Positions 15,236-26,627 of a stretch of DNA of 64,000 bases are shown here, in pieces. The position numbers and the translations under genes are program-made. Under the pieces are notes generated by a model. The model was not told the DNA's origin. It made no database searches and saw nothing but the letters and a program-made list of their open reading frames with translations. Origin of the DNA: Escherichia phage vB_EcoP_PE006; the sequence record OQ938541.1; one strand, given 5' to 3'. Position 1 is the first letter of the stretch. Every line of letters begins with the position of its first letter.

Positions 15236-15988
15236 ATGGCGATGCCTGAAGTGCAAAACCCGATTAACACGTATGGCTGGCTTAAGAAAGCTGTTGCCTT
15301 GTGGGCCGATCGAGACGATGATGAATTTGTTAATCAAATTCCAAACTTTATTAACTTTGCAGAGAAAGAGATTTATCGTAACTTACGTATCCCTCCTCTG
15401 GAAAAAGAAGTGTATTTAGATATTAAAGATGGAGTAGCTTACATTCCTCCTGATTACTTAGAAGCTCAGTGGATGATGAGAGCCAAAGATGGTACAATCT
15501 TCCAAGTAACATCTCCTGAAGAGATTAGCTATCGTAGACAGCATGGAACAATTAACCCATCTCACTGGAATAACCAACCTGTTAACTTTGCTCGTTTCGG
15601 TAGTCGTTTCATTTTCTACCCTAGTATTGAAGCAGATACTCCTGTTTATCCTGATGATGGAAGTCCTTTGATTCCAGCAGAAAACTCAGTCATTCTTAGC
15701 TATTATGCAGACCCACCGGAGTTCCATGAAGATACAGATACCAGCGCTATTCTTACTATTGCACCAGAACTTCTTCTGTATTTCACTCTACGTCATGCTT
15801 GCTTGTTTGTTCAAGATGATAACGGAGTTCAGAAATGGTCTGCATTAGGAAAAGCTATCCTTGATGAAATGGTAGAGCAGAATAAGAAACAAGAGTACTC
15901 AGGTTCACCTATCGCAATTCCGAATAACATGACTCGACTTCAGAGCAGCTTGCCTGACATTTATGGTATTCGTACTTCTCGTGTATAA
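15236..15988 (+). CDS. virion structural protein, function unassigned (first gene after the capsid terminator)
   Basis: 250 aa ORF with RBS AAGGAGG; position suggests a neck or tail component; no motif recognised. Confidence 0.45.
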   Translation: MAMPEVQNPINTYGWLKKAVALWADRDDDEFVNQIPNFINFAEKEIYRNLRIPPLEKEVYLDIKDGVAYIPPDYLEAQWMMRAKDGTIFQVTSPEEISYRRQHGTINPSHWNNQPVNFARFGSRFIFYPSIEADTPVYPDDGSPLIPAENSVILSYYADPPEFHEDTDTSAILTIAPELLLYFTLRHACLFVQDDNGVQKWSALGKAILDEMVEQNKKQEYSGSPIAIPNNMTRLQSSLPDIYGIRTSRV

Positions 15989-15997
15989 GGAGATAAT

Positions 15998-18778
15998 ATG
16001 ATCGTTTATAATAACCAAGCACCTGATGCAGTGAATAACGTTGGGCAGTTTGGTGCTACTGAAGGCTCTATCGGAGCTTACAAGCAAGCAGCAGAATATG
16101 CAGCTGATTCTAAATATTGGGCACTGCTAGCGGAGTCTAAGTTTGGTACAATTGATGATTTAATCGCTGAAGTAGAACGTCTATATCAACAAGGTGTTCT
16201 GATGAAGCAGGATATTGAAGATCTTAAGCAGGATTTTATAGATCAAGATGCTCGTTTGATGACTCTGATTGCTCAAACTAATGCGGCAGTATCTGATGCA
16301 AACAACGCAGTTGCTTTAATTAATCAGAAACTTATTGAAGTTCAGAAGCAACTCGATGTTCTGTTGGGAATGTCCGTTGACGTAACTACACTTCCTCCGG
16401 GAACCCCAGCTACTGGTTCTTTTAATCCGACCACTGGTGTAATCTCTTTAGGTATTCCAGAAGGCGATCCCGGAAAGGATGGTTCTGTTAAGGATTTGGA
16501 TACAGCACCTACCGGTGTTCCAGAGTTAGGCGACTTAGGTTTCTACGTTGACAAAGATGACAATACTGTCCACAAAACTACTCTAGAGAGCATTGCTAAC
16601 TTAATCCCATCTGTTCGTTCTGTTTCTGTTAACGAGGGTCCAGCTCTTGATGGAGAAGTTGCTCTGACAATTAACAAGAATACAGTTGGTTTAGGGAACG
16701 TTCTGAACGTTGCTCAATATAGCCGTCAAGAGATTAACGATAAGTTTGACAAAACTACCAAGACATACCAATCAAAAGCAGAAGCAGATGCTGACGCTCA
16801 ATATCGTCAAGTTGGCGAGAAGGTCTTAGTTTGGGAAGCTACTAAGTATGAATTCTATACGGTTGCTGCCGACAAAACACTAACCCCTGTTAAGACTGAA
16901 GGTAGAATCCTTACTGTTAACTCTCGCTCTCCAGACTCAAGTGGTAACATTGATATCACGATTCCAACAGGAAACCCTTCTCTGTATCTCGGCGAGATGG
17001 TAATGTTTCCTTATGACCCGACGAAGAATATCTCATACCCAGGGGTTCTTCCTGCCGACGGTCGTCTGGTGTCAAAAGAGTCTGCTCTTGACTTAGGCCC
17101 ATCTCTTGTTAGTGGGCAGCTACCTGTTGTCTCTGAAACAGAATGGCAGGCTGGTGCTAAACAATACTTCTCTTGGGGTAAGCTTGCGGATGGCGTAACT
17201 GATGCAGATTCCACCAATTTCATCAATATCCGACTACCTGACTGGACTGGTGGAGAGGCAATTCGATCTCCAGATTCTACTAAAGACAGATCATATAAAG
17301 GTAGTGTTCAGAGTCAGATACCTTATGTAGTTACCGTCAATAATCAATCTCCTGATGAAGTCACAGGTAATGTCAGCATCACTAAAGAAATGATAGGGGC
17401 AGCCAGTTCTGGAGATAACTCGGATATTACATCATTGACTGGATTGACTACCGCTCTGTCTATCACGCAAGGAGGTACTGGGGCAACTACTAAAGAACAG
17501 GCTCGTATAAACTTGGGGGTTAGCAGCATAGTTAATGACGGTAGTTCACAAACTACCGTAAGCTCTCCAAATGGTAACACCATATTGGCAGTTCCTAATA
17601 ACGCTGGGCAGTGGGGGGTTATCCAATGGAACGGGTCATCCTACGACAACGTGCCGCTGAATATCATAGGGGGTGGTACTGGAGCAACAACCCTAACCCA
17701 AGCCCGGTCTAATTTTGAGGTTGACAGACTAGTTCAAGGGGAAGCAGAAACTGCTCTGTGGAGTGAGGATAGGTCAAATAAAATCGTTCTCTGGGGTACT
17801 GATAATAGCGTAGAGTGGGGTTGTTATGATAATAAAAACGCTAAATGGAATGCCCTCGGGCTAGGAAAGGGTGGTACTGGAGCAACAACAGCATCTGGTG
17901 CTAGGACCAACCTAAACGTCGACAGAGTTAACCAAGAGCCTACTTCTACAAGAATGTGGTCAGCAGATAAAAGTTTTTACTTTTTTGTAAATGACAACAA
18001 AGATTGGGGTGTGTGGGATGCAACTCTGAATAAATCTATCCCTCTCCATATTGACAAAGGTGGTACAGATGCATCTGATCCTTGGACGGCTACCCATAAC
18101 CTGAAAACATTCTCTCAGAAAACAGCTCGATTTGTTCCAGGGGACAATCCGTTGGATATTTTTTGGGCAAACTCTTATGGGTTTCTTACAGGACAGTATG
18201 AGCAAAGCTTAACTGGCCCTTGGATGGATGTTACCAGTTTTGACAACAAAGCAAGGATGCAGTTGATTGGGTTTTATGGTAGCTCACTCGGGACTAGTGG
18301 TTTTGCTTACAAAGTATTTGAGCCTAATGATAATACTTGGCTTCCCACTCGTATTGTAAAAGATTCTGGTAACACCACTATCGACGTTAACGGTTTCATA
18401 AAAGCTGCCTCTCCAATTGTAGACATCTTTCATGATGGAGCTTTTAAAACCAACCACGAAGCAGAGGGCGTTTCTGTAGAACGTATTTCTGTTGGTGAAT
18501 ACCTTGTCACCGGTTGCTTGGGTACTAATAGTGACAAAGGATGGGGCGGTGTTGATGGAGGGTTTGAAATACCTTTAGATAGGAATAAACAACCTCGAAT
18601 CTGGCTTGACTATGAGATTAAAGAAGATGGGTCTATCCTAGTCAAGACGTATCATAGAGAACACCCTAATGCTCCTAAATTCGCACAGAATATCATAGAA
18701 GGTGTATCTGACGGTGACCCAATTGATATTCCTGCTGATGCGTTCATTTCGGTTCGTGTTGAGATGCCTTCTGAGTAA
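15998..18778 (+). CDS. tail fiber protein with phage-fibre repeats
   Basis: 926 aa with repeated GGTGATT...AR.NL motifs (ITQGGTGATTKEQARINLGV, IIGGGTGATTLTQARSNFEV, LGKGGTGATTASGARTNLNV). Confidence 0.75.
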   Translation: MIVYNNQAPDAVNNVGQFGATEGSIGAYKQAAEYAADSKYWALLAESKFGTIDDLIAEVERLYQQGVLMKQDIEDLKQDFIDQDARLMTLIAQTNAAVSDANNAVALINQKLIEVQKQLDVLLGMSVDVTTLPPGTPATGSFNPTTGVISLGIPEGDPGKDGSVKDLDTAPTGVPELGDLGFYVDKDDNTVHKTTLESIANLIPSVRSVSVNEGPALDGEVALTINKNTVGLGNVLNVAQYSRQEINDKFDKTTKTYQSKAEADADAQYRQVGEKVLVWEATKYEFYTVAADKTLTPVKTEGRILTVNSRSPDSSGNIDITIPTGNPSLYLGEMVMFPYDPTKNISYPGVLPADGRLVSKESALDLGPSLVSGQLPVVSETEWQAGAKQYFSWGKLADGVTDADSTNFINIRLPDWTGGEAIRSPDSTKDRSYKGSVQSQIPYVVTVNNQSPDEVTGNVSITKEMIGAASSGDNSDITSLTGLTTALSITQGGTGATTKEQARINLGVSSIVNDGSSQTTVSSPNGNTILAVPNNAGQWGVIQWNGSSYDNVPLNIIGGGTGATTLTQARSNFEVDRLVQGEAETALWSEDRSNKIVLWGTDNSVEWGCYDNKNAKWNALGLGKGGTGATTASGARTNLNVDRVNQEPTSTRMWSADKSFYFFVNDNKDWGVWDATLNKSIPLHIDKGGTDASDPWTATHNLKTFSQKTARFVPGDNPLDIFWANSYGFLTGQYEQSLTGPWMDVTSFDNKARMQLIGFYGSSLGTSGFAYKVFEPNDNTWLPTRIVKDSGNTTIDVNGFIKAASPIVDIFHDGAFKTNHEAEGVSVERISVGEYLVTGCLGTNSDKGWGGVDGGFEIPLDRNKQPRIWLDYEIKEDGSILVKTYHREHPNAPKFAQNIIEGVSDGDPIDIPADAFISVRVEMPSE

Positions 18779-18787
18779 AACAATAAT

Positions 18788-18806
18788 GCTCCCTTCGGGG
18801 AGCTTT
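18788..18806 (+). terminator. intercistronic hairpin with UUCG loop (weak terminator or RNA-processing/stability element)
   Basis: GCTCCC-TTCG-GGGAGC followed by only TTT. Confidence 0.35.
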
Positions 18807-18818
18807 AAGGAGATTTAA

Positions 18819-20939
18819 ATGTCTAGAGAACTAATGCCTAAATCTGGCATAATGATGCCTCATGTAGTTGTAACCAGAGATGCGGCTGTTGTCGGTGTTT
18901 CTACTGTAGATGGACAGGCTGGTGCTGTTGACCTTACTGGAAAGTATTTACAGAAAACCGATGCGGCTGCTACATACCAAACTAAAGCAGAAGGTGCATC
19001 TAAAGATTTTGTACTGGATTCAATTCAACCTATTATGTCTGGTGCTTTATTCAGAGCAGACCCTTGGGTTGTTAACGACACCCCATTCCGATCTACTGGA
19101 GCTAACGGTGTAGAATCAGTTGATATGATGAAAGTAACCCCTGATAACTCAATCAAGATTGGTAGTTATGCCTCTTCAGTTCAAGGTGTAGAGATTCATT
19201 CTGCTGGTCGTCTTCAGGTTGTTGACCAGAATGATTCTGGGGTAGAAACTAAGTATCCGGTTTATTCTAAACGTTATCGTCCTGAGATTGAGGATTTGCC
19301 TTTTGCTGCAATTGGTTCTTATGTTAAAGATTCTAAGGGTCGTACTGTTGGGGTTACTCGTACAGGGATTAACTCTGATATCAAACAACTTACCCAGAAG
19401 GTAACTTTCACTCAACCAGTTACCGTTCCTGATGCAGTTGGGGATTATGATGCAGTTACTTTGAGACAGCTTCGTAATAGTGGTGGCGGTTCTGGTGGTC
19501 CTACAATGAGTGGTATATCTAACTTCGGTATTGGTGATTTCCACTTACGTGACAGTCGAGCTTTTATTCCAGCTTTTGAAGTAGTGTCTGACGGACAGCT
19601 TTTGAACCGTGCTGACTATCCAGACCTTTGGGCATACGCTCAATTGCTGTCTCCTATTGAAGACTCTCTGTGGTTGTCTGATAAATTTCAACGTGGCAGA
19701 TACTCAAAAGGTGATGGTTCTACTACATTTCGTGTTCCGGATAGGAATGGTGTTCAGGAAGGGTCTATTCGGGCTTTATATGGTAGAGGTGATGGTGGCT
19801 CTTCTACTACTAATGGAGCTATCTTTGATTCAGCTGCCCCTAACATAACAGGCGGTTTTGAAATCGTAACAAACACTACCGTACTTGAGAATGCTGATCT
19901 TGAAGGGGCAATATTTGGTGCGCGGAAAGGGTACAAATATGCCCAATTGAATACTATTGAACTTCCTTCTTCCGGTGATATATATCCCAAACAGATGCGG
20001 ATTGACGCGTCACGTTCAAGCCCTATCTACGGGGCGTCCTATGACGAGATTATGGGTCGTAACTTTGTAGGTGTTTGGACTATTCGTGCTCATGGTGGAT
20101 TCACAGCAGCTAACACTTCTTGGTCTGTTATTAACAGCGATGCAGATAAACCTAGCAGCGGAACTTCTGTAAGTGGTGGGTCAATTCTCTCCGAGTATAA
20201 AATAGGAACTGAAGTTGAAGGTTATGCGTCTTTTAGGATGGTGGGAACTATCGGTGCTACTTATGCTGCTCGTGTAACCGTTTTTAATAAGTCTTCAGGA
20301 GCCAACGAAACCTTCGATTTTGGAAGTGATGGAAACTTAAACATTCCGGGAAGTTTGCGTACTAACGAAGGTGACGTCATCGCTAAGAGTCAACTGATAT
20401 CTCAAGGAGGTCGGATAGTTCTTATAGGTAATAGTAATCAAAGCCAATCTTTTGTTGAATTTAAGAGCAACAATGGTTATACTGTGAATTCAAGAGTTTA
20501 TTCTGAGCGTGATGGCGAACTCACCATATCAACATCTACAGCTGGAGCTAATCAGAAATATTTTCAATTTCTTAAGGATGGTAGTGCTACAAGCTCTGGT
20601 GGCTGGATCCACTCTTCTGATATGAGAATTAAAGAGAATATTAAACCAATAGAAAACCCTCTGGAAAAGATGAAAAACATCAAAGGTGTTTCTTGGAAGC
20701 TTAGAAACGGGGGTAAGATTGGTTTTGGTTTCATAGCTCAAGATGTTGAAGTAGACTTCCCTGATGCGGTATCTATTTCTGGTGATATGGAGATGGAAGA
20801 TGGGTCTGTAGTTAAGGGTGTAAGATCGGTTGATACTTATGGTGTTTCCGCCGCTTTACACCACGAAGCTATTCTTGAACTTATGAAACAGATCGAAGAC
20901 CTTAAGAAAGAGATAGCAGAACTTAAATCTGGTAAATAA
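18819..20939 (+). CDS. tail fiber/spike with C-terminal intramolecular chaperone (peptidase S74-like) domain
   Basis: 706 aa; C-terminal ~106 aa begins ...HSSDMRIKENIKP..., resembling the auto-cleaving chaperone domains of endosialidase-type and L-shaped tail fibers. Confidence 0.7.
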   Translation: MSRELMPKSGIMMPHVVVTRDAAVVGVSTVDGQAGAVDLTGKYLQKTDAAATYQTKAEGASKDFVLDSIQPIMSGALFRADPWVVNDTPFRSTGANGVESVDMMKVTPDNSIKIGSYASSVQGVEIHSAGRLQVVDQNDSGVETKYPVYSKRYRPEIEDLPFAAIGSYVKDSKGRTVGVTRTGINSDIKQLTQKVTFTQPVTVPDAVGDYDAVTLRQLRNSGGGSGGPTMSGISNFGIGDFHLRDSRAFIPAFEVVSDGQLLNRADYPDLWAYAQLLSPIEDSLWLSDKFQRGRYSKGDGSTTFRVPDRNGVQEGSIRALYGRGDGGSSTTNGAIFDSAAPNITGGFEIVTNTTVLENADLEGAIFGARKGYKYAQLNTIELPSSGDIYPKQMRIDASRSSPIYGASYDEIMGRNFVGVWTIRAHGGFTAANTSWSVINSDADKPSSGTSVSGGSILSEYKIGTEVEGYASFRMVGTIGATYAARVTVFNKSSGANETFDFGSDGNLNIPGSLRTNEGDVIAKSQLISQGGRIVLIGNSNQSQSFVEFKSNNGYTVNSRVYSERDGELTISTSTAGANQKYFQFLKDGSATSSGGWIHSSDMRIKENIKPIENPLEKMKNIKGVSWKLRNGGKIGFGFIAQDVEVDFPDAVSISGDMEMEDGSVVKGVRSVDTYGVSAALHHEAILELMKQIEDLKKEIAELKSGK

Positions 20940-20945
20940 TCTATT

Positions 20946-20962
20946 GCCCCTTAGGGGGCTTT
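20946..20962 (+). terminator. intercistronic hairpin (weak terminator)
   Basis: GCCCC-TTAG-GGGGC followed by TTT. Confidence 0.3.
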
Positions 20963-21032: not shown

Positions 21033-21251
21033 ATGAAAATGATGAAACAAGCTGCATATGGTTTAATCTGTTTAGGTGCAGGTGTTGTGGTGTCAACCGC
21101 AGTTCCTGTAAGCGCAGTTCATCCATTAATAACTGTCCCTGCTCCAGTAGAGAAGCTTAGCTCTCAATGCAAGCAGAGAACAATTCAAAATAACCTAGTT
21201 GTTATTTGTCCTGATGCTGAATCTAACGCTCTGAGAAAGATACTACCTTAA
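21033..21251 (+). CDS. small membrane or secreted protein (possible holin-like protein)
   Basis: 72 aa with one N-terminal hydrophobic segment (AAYGLICLGAGVVVSTAVPV); lies directly upstream of a lysozyme gene. Confidence 0.35.
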   Translation: MKMMKQAAYGLICLGAGVVVSTAVPVSAVHPLITVPAPVEKLSSQCKQRTIQNNLVVICPDAESNALRKILP

Positions 21252-21784: not shown

Positions 21785-22588
21785 TTGGCTATCGAAACTA
21801 ATGCGGTAGTTATTACCGACTTAAACCCGCTCTATCCTAGAGACAGGGATTACATCTACGAAGGGGCGGCTCAAATCCGCCTCATTAAACAAACACTACA
21901 GAATACATTCCCTAATGTTACAGAACCAGTTGATATAGATTCTGACACCTTTAAGATTATGTCAGAGAAGCTCAAGTTTACTGGTGATGCAATGGATGTT
22001 GGTGGTCTGATGATTAAGAACGTCACTCCGGGGACTGGTGACAAAGATGTTGTCACTAAAGGCCAGATGGAAGCGTTCATGAAGAACTGGATGGAGAATA
22101 AGCTCTATCGAATTGGCTCTTACTACATCACTGAAGAAGATATTAACCCCGGTGATTCTATCTCCCTAGGGTTTGGCTCTTGGGCTAAAGTGACTGGTGT
22201 TATCATGGGTACTGGTGTTGTAAACCCTGATGGCTCTGTTCCTAATGCTCAGAGAGTCGAGTTCCAAGCAGGTGGCACAGGTGGTCGCGTCTTCAATACC
22301 ATTCGTACAGAGAACGTACCTCTGATGACAGTTAATGGCTCCAGCTTCTCCTTATCCAGCAACACCCATAGTCACAACATGGTGTTTGGTCGTGGGGATG
22401 CTAGTGGTCATAACAGCTCACCTAACTGGTATAGTCCGGGTGGTGGTTATAGTCAGAGAACTGAGAACGATACACACTCTCATACAATCTCTGGTAGTGT
22501 AAGTCTTGGTCGTGATGATATTTCTCGTCAACCTATTAACACTTTGCCACCATTCAGAGCGGCTCACATTTGGAGACGTATTAGCTAA
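21785..22588 (+). CDS. tail fiber-like / baseplate protein with His-rich C-terminus
   Basis: 267 aa, Gly/Ser/Thr-rich, with NTHSHN...DTHSHTISG motifs reminiscent of metal-binding fiber tips. Confidence 0.5.
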   Translation: MAIETNAVVITDLNPLYPRDRDYIYEGAAQIRLIKQTLQNTFPNVTEPVDIDSDTFKIMSEKLKFTGDAMDVGGLMIKNVTPGTGDKDVVTKGQMEAFMKNWMENKLYRIGSYYITEEDINPGDSISLGFGSWAKVTGVIMGTGVVNPDGSVPNAQRVEFQAGGTGGRVFNTIRTENVPLMTVNGSSFSLSSNTHSHNMVFGRGDASGHNSSPNWYSPGGGYSQRTENDTHSHTISGSVSLGRDDISRQPINTLPPFRAAHIWRRIS

Positions 22589-25500: not shown

Positions 25501-25615
25501 CTCGGTGAGACTGAACCATCCATACCTTTTCTATAATGTTATAGATAATGATGTTAACAGTAATGCTGCTATCAATGGGTTAACGATAGAGTTTGCTGTT
25601 GGCGGACGGAGATAA
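22598..25615 (+). CDS. large tail structural protein with Ig-like (Big_2-type) domains
   Basis: 1005 aa with at least two Ig-like segments (e.g. ITLSQSDVIVSRGSQYILTATLSPANAPNQNITWTSSNPNIATV). Confidence 0.55.
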   Translation: MALYPIKSLGAVGVIADQAPTDLAPNAFTNAINARFVEQRVFKTGGNAPLSYVDEDKDLTPLSFVSMPFDYYSAGNSFLVVGTDKKLYKLTDESLTDISRKVATVTKKASASIKIYPVVSQIVPKESTISMNFNQTKSLEVSLLPADANNTDLVWEVSNSTYGSVTVDPSDSKLATLTSFEREGNLVVTISTADDSVVAQIAVNIIDGDSGIFLSQDTVTIRKGGTTTLTAVTGKTPVTWSSNNASIVSVTPNANSLTAVITANGEGNVTITADNGTKTASCEVVSIPQIDSITLSQSDVIVSRGSQYILTATLSPANAPNQNITWTSSNPNIATVSGTSTQGTVNALLAGFTEITATTEEGNRVAVCTVRVDLAGRAMRTSAMAFAAPASEPIESQEEEVVTPPESEETIYFAEPTSGIDTSGMYEGNSFYDYSNVNDIEGFARASLLATPLSSVTLDVVSASLDVGEEIVITATASPEGDYSYQWSVDKTGYVSTTSVTGKSIKLVALRKGEINVTCTVSQMTQKDYDAFDDYPWYHAVISNCAVATTHYETPQVKEFESEYFVDLPGWGEQTVVDNDGNPSVKKFNWKCERVRSFNNRLFALNMREANASGVTTNYPLRLRWSNFANENKAPTLWDDFAYDRVVSSDLASNIVGQTQALENGYAGYIDLADSNGSLIDILPLKDYLFVYTEFETYIGSPTNNTYQPLMFKKLFNDSGILAPECVVEVEGSHFVVTQNDVILHNGATKKSIASNRVKNMLINEVCLVNPLATRVHLHQDKKEVWVLYVGPGEPKESFACTKAAVWNYEFDTWSFRTIPYAQCIGLVDPPVLERGPIWSDFQEITWDDPSIKELVWRKDATNFRQRVTIVGSFLRGFYQVDVGALDYFYDRLNDKVIEKPLEMRLERTGMDFDNITNEWNQKHINRFRPQTTGSGTYTFEAGGSQFSNEYGHPHTSKTYTIGVDRHVSVRLNHPYLFYNVIDNDVNSNAAINGLTIEFAVGGRR

Positions 25616-25620
25616 CAACA

Positions 25621-25648
25621 AGGGGCTTCGTGCCCCTTTTATTGTTTT
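25621..25648 (+). terminator. rho-independent terminator
   Basis: AGGGGC-TTCGT-GCCCCT followed by TTTATTGTTTT. Confidence 0.55.
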
Positions 25649-25658
25649 GGAGGAACTT

Positions 25659-26627
25659 ATGGGTGCAGGTGGTTTTCGTAAGAACACTGGTCGTAATAAC
25701 ACCACACTCCCGTACAACGTTGGGTTTCTCAATAATGTACAGGACACAGAAACATATAACGTAGCCGTATATGACGAGCTACAGAAAGTTAGTACAGCTA
25801 CTAACCAAATGTTCCAAGCTATTGATGAGATTCATGATGAGATTGATGTTCGTATCAAAGCTCTTCATGCGATGAACTTACAATTTGATGAGCTTGAGAA
25901 TAGAATTACTACAGAGATAGAGACAGCTATTGCAGATATTATAACACAGATGGGGAACCTCTCCACTGAAGATATTTGGGATAATTCTGTTCAACCTCCT
26001 GTAAAATTAGAAAGCACTGTATCTGGCTTTAAAACAAGTATTGAAGGTAACACAACTAAGATTCAAACGGTAGAAGGGATTGTTAACGACCAAGGTCAAG
26101 AGATTGCTTTAGTTCAGACAGAGATTCAAAATATTAATGGAAGCCTATCTCAGTATATGAAGCTTTCTGAGTATGAAGCTACATGGGGAGTTAACTCTAC
26201 AGTCAACGGAAGATATGCTGGGGTCAAGTTAACTAACAACGGAACAAACAGTCAATTCCAAGTAACAGCTAACAAGTTTATTGTTGGTGATGGTAGCTCT
26301 GGTAACACCCCTTTTGTGTTTGAGGGTGGAAGAGCTAGGATGGAGTTCGCTGACATAAAGAACGTCAACATCACAACAGCTCAGATTGCCAACGCTAGAA
26401 TCCAATGGGCACAGATTGATAACGTATCTATCTCCAATGCTCAGATTCAGAACTTGTCAGCGGATAAGATTACTGCTGGTTCTATGTGGGGTTCTAACTG
26501 GAGACTTACGGTTGGTGGTGATTTTGTTATGGGTGGTACAGGTGGTTCTCAGTTGTGGATGAATGGTAATAGAATAGATTTTTATGATGGGAGTGGGACT
26601 CTTCGCATAAGAATAGGGAGTTGGTAA
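25659..26627 (+). CDS. tail fiber-like protein
   Basis: Start placed at the ATG preceded by GGAGGA; the track start at 25593 lies inside the preceding terminator. Contains repetitive ...AQIANARIQWAQIDNVSISNAQIQNLSADKITAG... Confidence 0.55.
   Translation: MGAGGFRKNTGRNNTTLPYNVGFLNNVQDTETYNVAVYDELQKVSTATNQMFQAIDEIHDEIDVRIKALHAMNLQFDELENRITTEIETAIADIITQMGNLSTEDIWDNSVQPPVKLESTVSGFKTSIEGNTTKIQTVEGIVNDQGQEIALVQTEIQNINGSLSQYMKLSEYEATWGVNSTVNGRYAGVKLTNNGTNSQFQVTANKFIVGDGSSGNTPFVFEGGRARMEFADIKNVNITTAQIANARIQWAQIDNVSISNAQIQNLSADKITAGSMWGSNWRLTVGGDFVMGGTGGSQLWMNGNRIDFYDGSGTLRIRIGSW

Follow-up and report, generated by a model that had tools for sequence, protein, structure and literature searches.

A predicted Peptidase S74 intramolecular chaperone domain at the C-terminus of the distal long tail fibre protein of Escherichia phage vB_EcoP_PE006

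The C-terminal 106 residues (D601–K706) of the distal long tail fibre protein of Escherichia phage vB_EcoP_PE006 (PE006) very probably form a Peptidase S74 C-terminal intramolecular chaperone/autocleavage domain. The protein is encoded in the window, the whole stretch of 64,000 nucleotides analysed from sequence record OQ938541.1. Its gene was taken from the ORF list and extends on the plus strand from an ATG start at 18819 to 20939 (706 aa; stop codon 20937–20939). A preliminary description, made from the letters alone, had called the product a tail fibre, and this identity was confirmed by a PHROG profile match (phrog_6921, E=1.6e-296) and by orthologues annotated as tail fibre. The same description had placed a chaperone domain in the last 106 of the 706 residues, at 20619–20936 on the plus strand. 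Translation of this interval gave 106 codons, exactly D601–K706 (DMRIKENIK...AELKSGK), with the opening DMRIKENIKPIENPLEKMKNIKGVSWKL and the ending KKEIAELKSGK, and the S74 domain was located in these last 106 residues. The string that had been quoted as the start of the domain, HSSDMRIKENIK, is present in the protein but begins at H598 (nt 20610), three residues before the interval. H598, S599 and S600 lie directly N-terminal of D601, whose codon begins at nt 20619. Because the interval begins at D601, it corresponds to the fragment that a cut after S600 would release, predicted to be 106 aa and 11.74 kDa in size.

The assignment to the S74 family is based on profile, sequence and fold searches. 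Pfam PF13884 (Peptidase_S74, "chaperone of endosialidase") matched aa 600–651 of the fibre over profile positions 1–57 of 58, with E=1e-13 and a score of 51.8 bits, where the curated gathering cut-off is 22 bits. The resemblance to S74-type chaperones read from the letters was thus upheld by the profile that had been named as its test. In a database search with the C-terminal 237 aa as the query (aa 470–706, E<=1e-5), PF13884 was present in all of the 117 homologues, which are mostly tail fibre proteins of enterobacterial prophages. Among the PDB sequences, the C-terminal 129 aa matched the phage S16 gp37 chain of 6F45 (E=1.8e-7). In this alignment, which stops at most three residues from the C-terminus, SSDMRIKENIKPIENP of PE006 is paired with SSDRRIKKDIKAFENP of 6F45, and the 6F45 motif SSDRRIKKDIK is aligned. 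The same search matched MyRF's intramolecular chaperone autocleavage (ICA) domain, 7DC3 (E=2e-3).

An AlphaFold2 (AF2) monomer was modelled from an alignment of 32 diverse homologues. The domain was predicted confidently, as a block with pLDDT 87–97 from about residue 600, and its fold consists of a small unit of mixed alpha/beta type, after which aa 673–705 (20835..20933, plus strand; model residues 204–236, pLDDT about 90–97) form a long C-terminal helix. From the model, this helix is predicted to be the coiled coil through which the chaperone domain trimerises, by analogy with the trimeric coiled coils described in the domains of T5 pb1 (PMC4690869) and MyRF (PMC8326128). Fold searches with the AF2 model retrieved the MyRF ICA domain, and the phage chaperone-domain structures 3GW6, 4UW8 and 6F45 were absent from the fold-search matches.

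The predicted catalytic and scissile serine is Ser600 (codon 20616..20618, plus strand), which aligns with Ser621 of EP335 gp13. Lys605 (codon 20631..20633, plus strand), at Ser+5, is the predicted general base of a Ser-Lys dyad. The spacing of S600 and K605 equals that of S1264/K1269 in T5 pb1 and of S587/K592 in MyRF. The MyRF pair has been equated with S911/K916 of endoNF (PMC8326128); the endoNF numbering was taken from that paper, and a full-text literature search for Ser911 / Lys916 gave no match. Among the 32 diverse homologues aligned, every sequence has D601 and K605, and S600 is found in at least 90%. When PE006 is compared with EcoN5, KBNP1711, EP335 and NJ01, the residues S600, D601, R603 and K605 are invariant in all five orthologues. 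In T5 pb1, the oxyanion-stabilising Arg1250 is supplied by the neighbouring chain of the upstream triple beta-helix (PMC4690869). An Arg of a neighbouring chain has this role in endoNF too. K586 of PE006, at Ser-14, is as far from its serine as R1250 is in T5, but EP335 does not share it, and the surrounding region is of low confidence in the monomer model; the region upstream of S600 as a whole has pLDDT 35–70 (AF2) and is not conserved with EP335.

Experimental precedents for cleavage come from an orthologue and from more remote proteins. For EP335 gp13, Witte et al. (2021) assigned the C-terminal 114 residues to a predicted chaperone domain (PMC8217332). The protein self-cleaves at Ser621|Asp622 with the loss of 11.8 kDa as determined by LC-ESI-MS, the C-terminal domain was gone from a GFP fusion purified on Ni-NTA, and the cleaved gp13 forms SDS-resistant oligomers and binds O157 and O26 cells (PMC8217332). 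EP335 Ser621 is the serine of the SDERIK motif, which aligns column for column with the PE006 sequence so that S621-D622 corresponds to S600-D601. In T5 pb1, the S1264A mutation blocks auto-proteolysis, Ser1264 adjoins Lys1269 in the structure, and an arginine of the neighbouring chain makes trimer formation a precondition of cleavage (PMC4690869). In MyRF, cleavage is abolished by S587A and by K592A (PMC8326128). From these relatives we infer, by analogy, the self-cleavage of the PE006 fibre, the chaperone role of its C-terminal domain and the site of receptor binding.

The preliminary description had proposed auto-excision at a Ser-Asp junction. The proposal holds in that the serine and the lysine are conserved and the cut at Ser621|Asp622 has been shown for EP335; in view of T5 and MyRF, the bond is known only to within one residue. 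With the same S74 domain, the bond that is cut may instead be S599|S600, so that the mature fibre would end at S599 and the fragment would begin with Ser600, a possibility to which we give a rather low probability. The cut of T5 pb1 was assigned to Thr1263|Ser1264, the serine leaving with the chaperone, and the authors report the same for K1F (PMC4690869); mass spectrometry of MyRF likewise placed the cleavage at P586|S587, N-terminal of the catalytic serine (PMC8326128). However, EP335 gp13 is the closest characterised relative, and its LC-ESI-MS assignment with the 11.8-kDa loss puts the serine on the fibre side (PMC8217332). The EP335 fragment from D622 to the end was computed as 108 aa and 11,838 Da, which means a loss of ~11,820 Da, versus ~11,907 Da if the serine also leaves. 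The bond could therefore break on either side of Ser600, a point on which the T5 pb1 and MyRF literature and the EP335 literature disagree. For PE006, the full-length chain has a computed average mass of 75,774 Da; a cut at Ser600|Asp601 gives computed masses of 64,049 Da (1–600) and 11,742 Da (601–706), and a cut at S599|S600 gives ~63,962 Da and ~11,830 Da. Since residues 599 and 600 are both serines, the mature C-terminus would be serine either way and the two models differ by only 87 Da.

Two further readings concern the fate and the reality of the domain. The S74-like domain might stay in the virion and form a structural knob at the distal end that aids host recognition, either without cleavage or cleaved and still bound. 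Cleaved chaperone domains can remain associated before release, and the interface of chaperone and fibre has been discussed for T5 (PMC4690869); moreover, the cleavage of the PE006 fibre is deduced from an experiment on its orthologue. Against a retained knob, the catalytic serine and lysine are intact and conserved in PE006, and the Ni-NTA-purified GFP fusion of the EP335 orthologue was without the domain (PMC8217332); we consider such retention improbable. Still further down the scale stands a match due to chance or low complexity, as with a coiled-coil tail, and an absence of S74 function; the probability of this is negligible. The charged helix in the last 34 residues could draw spurious coiled-coil matches, and weak PDB matches to gasdermin-B and uL29 (E>0.1) did appear, but the PF13884 match at aa 600–651 falls outside the helix. 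Together with the profile found in 117/117 homologues and the structural match to the MyRF ICA domain, it effectively refutes a chance resemblance.

For the favoured reading, a released chaperone with a cut after Ser600, we propose the following maturation. Three nascent chains would associate through the C-terminal helix (aa 673–705) as a trimeric coiled coil, and the chaperone domains would serve as a template on which the distal fibre upstream of them folds into its trimeric beta-structure. Ser600 would be positioned against Lys605 only after correct trimer formation, and each chain would then cut itself at the S600 junction. The 11.7-kDa fragment would be discarded and absent from the virion, leaving a mature subunit of about 600 aa and ~64 kDa. 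The mature 64-kDa subunits would build the long tail fibre's distal half, their N-termini docking on the proximal fibre (ORF 15998..18778) and their distal parts contacting the host surface. The SU10 counterpart, gp13 ("long tail fiber distal protein"), forms trimers. By analogy with these trimers and with the SDS-resistant oligomers of EP335 gp13, the PE006 fibre is probably trimeric as well.

The fibre was compared segment by segment with four orthologues (EcoN5, KBNP1711, EP335 and NJ01). The N-terminal part, aa 1–340 (18819..19838, plus strand), is conserved with 85–94% identity to the four and includes the start of a DT57C-LtfA-like / T4 gp12-like region; aa 203–509 match the DT57C-type LtfA of PDB 8HQZ chain d (E=3e-101). 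A conserved N-terminus of the phiEco32 gp15 type is reported to dock on the proximal fibre and to yield a branched or jointed fibre (PMC4728585), and by analogy the N-terminus of the PE006 fibre would dock onto its proximal fibre. The next segment, aa 341–413 (19839..20057, plus strand), is hypervariable, with 18–29% identity to all four orthologues. It is the most variable stretch of the protein, has conserved flanks and is located inside the region homologous to DT57C-type LtfA. Identity to the orthologues returns to 65–85% in aa 414–467. The distal domain found just before the cleavage site, aa 468–597 (20220..20609, plus strand), is beta-rich and appears as an exchangeable module, with 69–75% identity to EcoN5/KBNP1711 and 20% to EP335/NJ01; the AF2 model of aa 470–597 is beta-rich at low confidence (pLDDT 35–70). 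In the chaperone domain (aa 598–706), identity is 84% to EcoN5, 82% to KBNP1711, 65% to EP335 and 28% to NJ01. At the DNA level, most relatives match only nt 1–1402 of the fibre gene, and a match along the whole gene was obtained only in EcoN5 (83%) and KBNP1711 (81%). Judged by these comparisons, it is the fibre gene that makes the locus mosaic.

The preliminary description had located the receptor-binding tip just upstream of the cleavage site. This placement is plausible in view of the variation of aa 468–597 as an exchangeable module and, by analogy, of DT57C LtfA, whose specificity region has been reported to lie in the divergent C-terminal portion, on the upstream side of the predicted cleavage site (PMC4728585). 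The tip model is of low confidence, however, and the variation is greatest in aa 341–413; judged from the sequence, this segment is a candidate for determining specificity apart from the distal tip. A doubtful extension is that specificity rests wholly or partly on aa 341–413 (nt 19839–20057) and not just on the cleavage-adjacent domain; the S74 domain would then chaperone the aa 468–597 cassette, with which it would be exchanged as one unit, and specificity would evolve independently at two sites of the fibre. Variation in the tip is not strictly matched by variation in the chaperone domain: EP335 has 65% identity in the chaperone domain and 20% in the tip, and the chaperone domain of NJ01 has 28%. 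The pattern of identities suggests recombination breakpoints at or near the boundary of tip and chaperone. An NJ01 fibre lacking the S74 domain was considered, as BLASTP gave no significant alignment in the C-terminal third, but it was rejected when MAFFT aligned S-D-x-R-x-K. By its alignment, the NJ01 fibre carries a divergent subtype of the chaperone domain (28% identity).

A stretch of 20 kb around the fibre gene shares ~96% identity with the Escherichia phages NJ01 and 172-1, both placed in Gordonclarkvirinae, genus Kuravirus. By this sequence identity, PE006 is a Kuravirus-like E. coli podophage. On the basis of the common gene order in NJ01, EP335 and KBNP1711, its fibre is assigned as the orthologue of phiEco32 gp15, SU10 gp13, EP335 gp13 and NJ01_025. 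The Kuravirus order is adaptor, proximal fibre, distal fibre, holin, lysozyme, short fibre and nozzle, followed in PE006 by the needle. In the window, these are an SU10-type adaptor (15236..15988; PF24175, SU10_adaptor), a proximal fibre of 926 aa (15998..18778, plus strand; Phage_tail_C_2, PF25670, E=4e-60), the distal fibre, a holin-like ORF of 72 aa (21033–21251) whose counterpart in NJ01 and EcoN5 carries a holin annotation, a phage lysozyme (21281–21772; PF00959), a short-tail-fibre-like protein (21785–22588, plus strand; Gp10_C, PF21939), a Big_2-bearing nozzle-type protein of 1005 aa located after the short fibre, and a Phage_Tail_Tip needle-type protein (25593–26627, plus strand; mechanical ORF with a TTG start). 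PF13884 was absent from the eleven neighbouring products checked by Pfam, which include the 926-aa fibre, the holin-like ORF, the lysozyme, the short fibre, the nozzle, the needle, the adaptor, a DUF6453 protein, an SLT protein and a 1541-aa protein. Since the proximal fibre has no S74 domain and ends in Phage_tail_C_2, the route of maturation must differ between the two fibre proteins that make up the one appendage. The 926-aa proximal fibre has EP335 gp12 as its orthologue, which as a recombinant protein showed no binding to cells (PMC8217332).

Some features of the neighbourhood are reported as observed. With the holin-like ORF and the lysozyme located between the long- and short-fibre genes, the tail module encloses lysis genes, and the same arrangement is seen in NJ01, EP335 and KBNP1711. 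The short-fibre gene was called with a TTG start; its NJ01 orthologue is annotated with the same length (804 nt), and therefore the non-ATG start seems to be conserved with NJ01. The needle ORF overlaps the preceding 1005-aa gene by 23 nt, and its EP335 homologue starts ~50 nt past the preceding stop. From this spacing in EP335, the true start of the PE006 needle gene is probably an internal codon.

At the fibre gene itself, a Shine-Dalgarno-like AAGGAG (18807..18812, plus strand), read from the sequence, is located 6 nt 5' of the ATG. A short GC-rich hairpin, GCTCCCTTCGGGGAGC, is found at 18788–18803, directly 5' of this ribosome-binding site, and another, GCCCCTTAGGGGGC, followed by TTTAGT, is found at 20946–20959, 7 nt 3' of the stop codon. 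A consensus scan flagged only the hairpin at 18788–18803, in a minus-strand reading. The two hairpins could be weak terminators or RNA-stability elements. A Pfam Collar match at aa 295–311 of the fibre (E=0.0055) was sub-threshold and was set aside as evidence.

The assignment has practical consequences for annotation and protein engineering. The mature virion fibre subunit should be ~64 kDa and not 75.8 kDa. A C-terminal tag or fusion on the PE006 fibre would be lost on cleavage. Chimeric fibres designed to alter host range should probably carry a matching tip together with its chaperone module. The self-cleaving S74 domain on this fibre type is already known, and the exact protein sequence is already in NCBI. 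Because the domain family, the mechanism and the occurrence on the fibres of this phage group have been published, the call on the PE006 fibre is correct but ordinary, and no new biological question is opened by it.

Among known systems, EP335 gp13 is the orthologous gene and has the corresponding place in its genome. Its identity to the PE006 fibre is 64% overall and 65% within the chaperone domain, its S-D-x-R-x-K is aligned with that of PE006, and it binds host cells bearing O-antigen (PMC8217332). It differs in the distal domain, where aa 468–597 are ~20% identical, in the segment aa 341–413, and in the released fragment, which is 108 aa versus 106 aa in PE006. As the distal domain and the hypervariable segment differ, the host specificity of the PE006 fibre is likely to differ from that of EP335. 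The EcoN5 fibre, with 80% amino acid identity over the full length, is the closest in the phage collection searched, and the KBNP1711 fibre is 78% identical over the C-terminal 239 aa. Both share the tip type and the chaperone-domain type of PE006 and diverge strongly in aa 341–413 (18–29%); both are experimentally uncharacterised.

The PE006 domain is a textbook member of the S74 family, shows no departure from it and is ordinary in this respect. The endoNF of K1F, the founding member of Peptidase S74, belongs to the same Pfam family and has the same dyad of Ser and Ser+5 Lys (S911/K916) at the C-terminus of a trimeric receptor-binding protein. Its passenger is a sialidase tailspike, whereas that of PE006 is a fibre, and the endoNF structure 3GW6 gave no direct sequence or fold match from the PE006 domain. 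T5 pb1 and the DT57C fibres carry a C-terminal S74 chaperone domain as the PE006 fibre does. The domain of T5 pb1 has 133 aa with long beta-hairpin 'tentacles', versus 106 aa in PE006, and is cut N-terminal of the serine. DT57C LtfB has an N-terminus of the phiEco32 gp15 type, which is used for branching (PMC4728585). S16 gp37 (6F45) is the distal subunit of the long tail fibre of a Salmonella-phage myovirus. MyRF (7DC3) is a membrane-bound transcription factor of eukaryotes; there the domain acts in regulated release and not in the maturation of a fibre.
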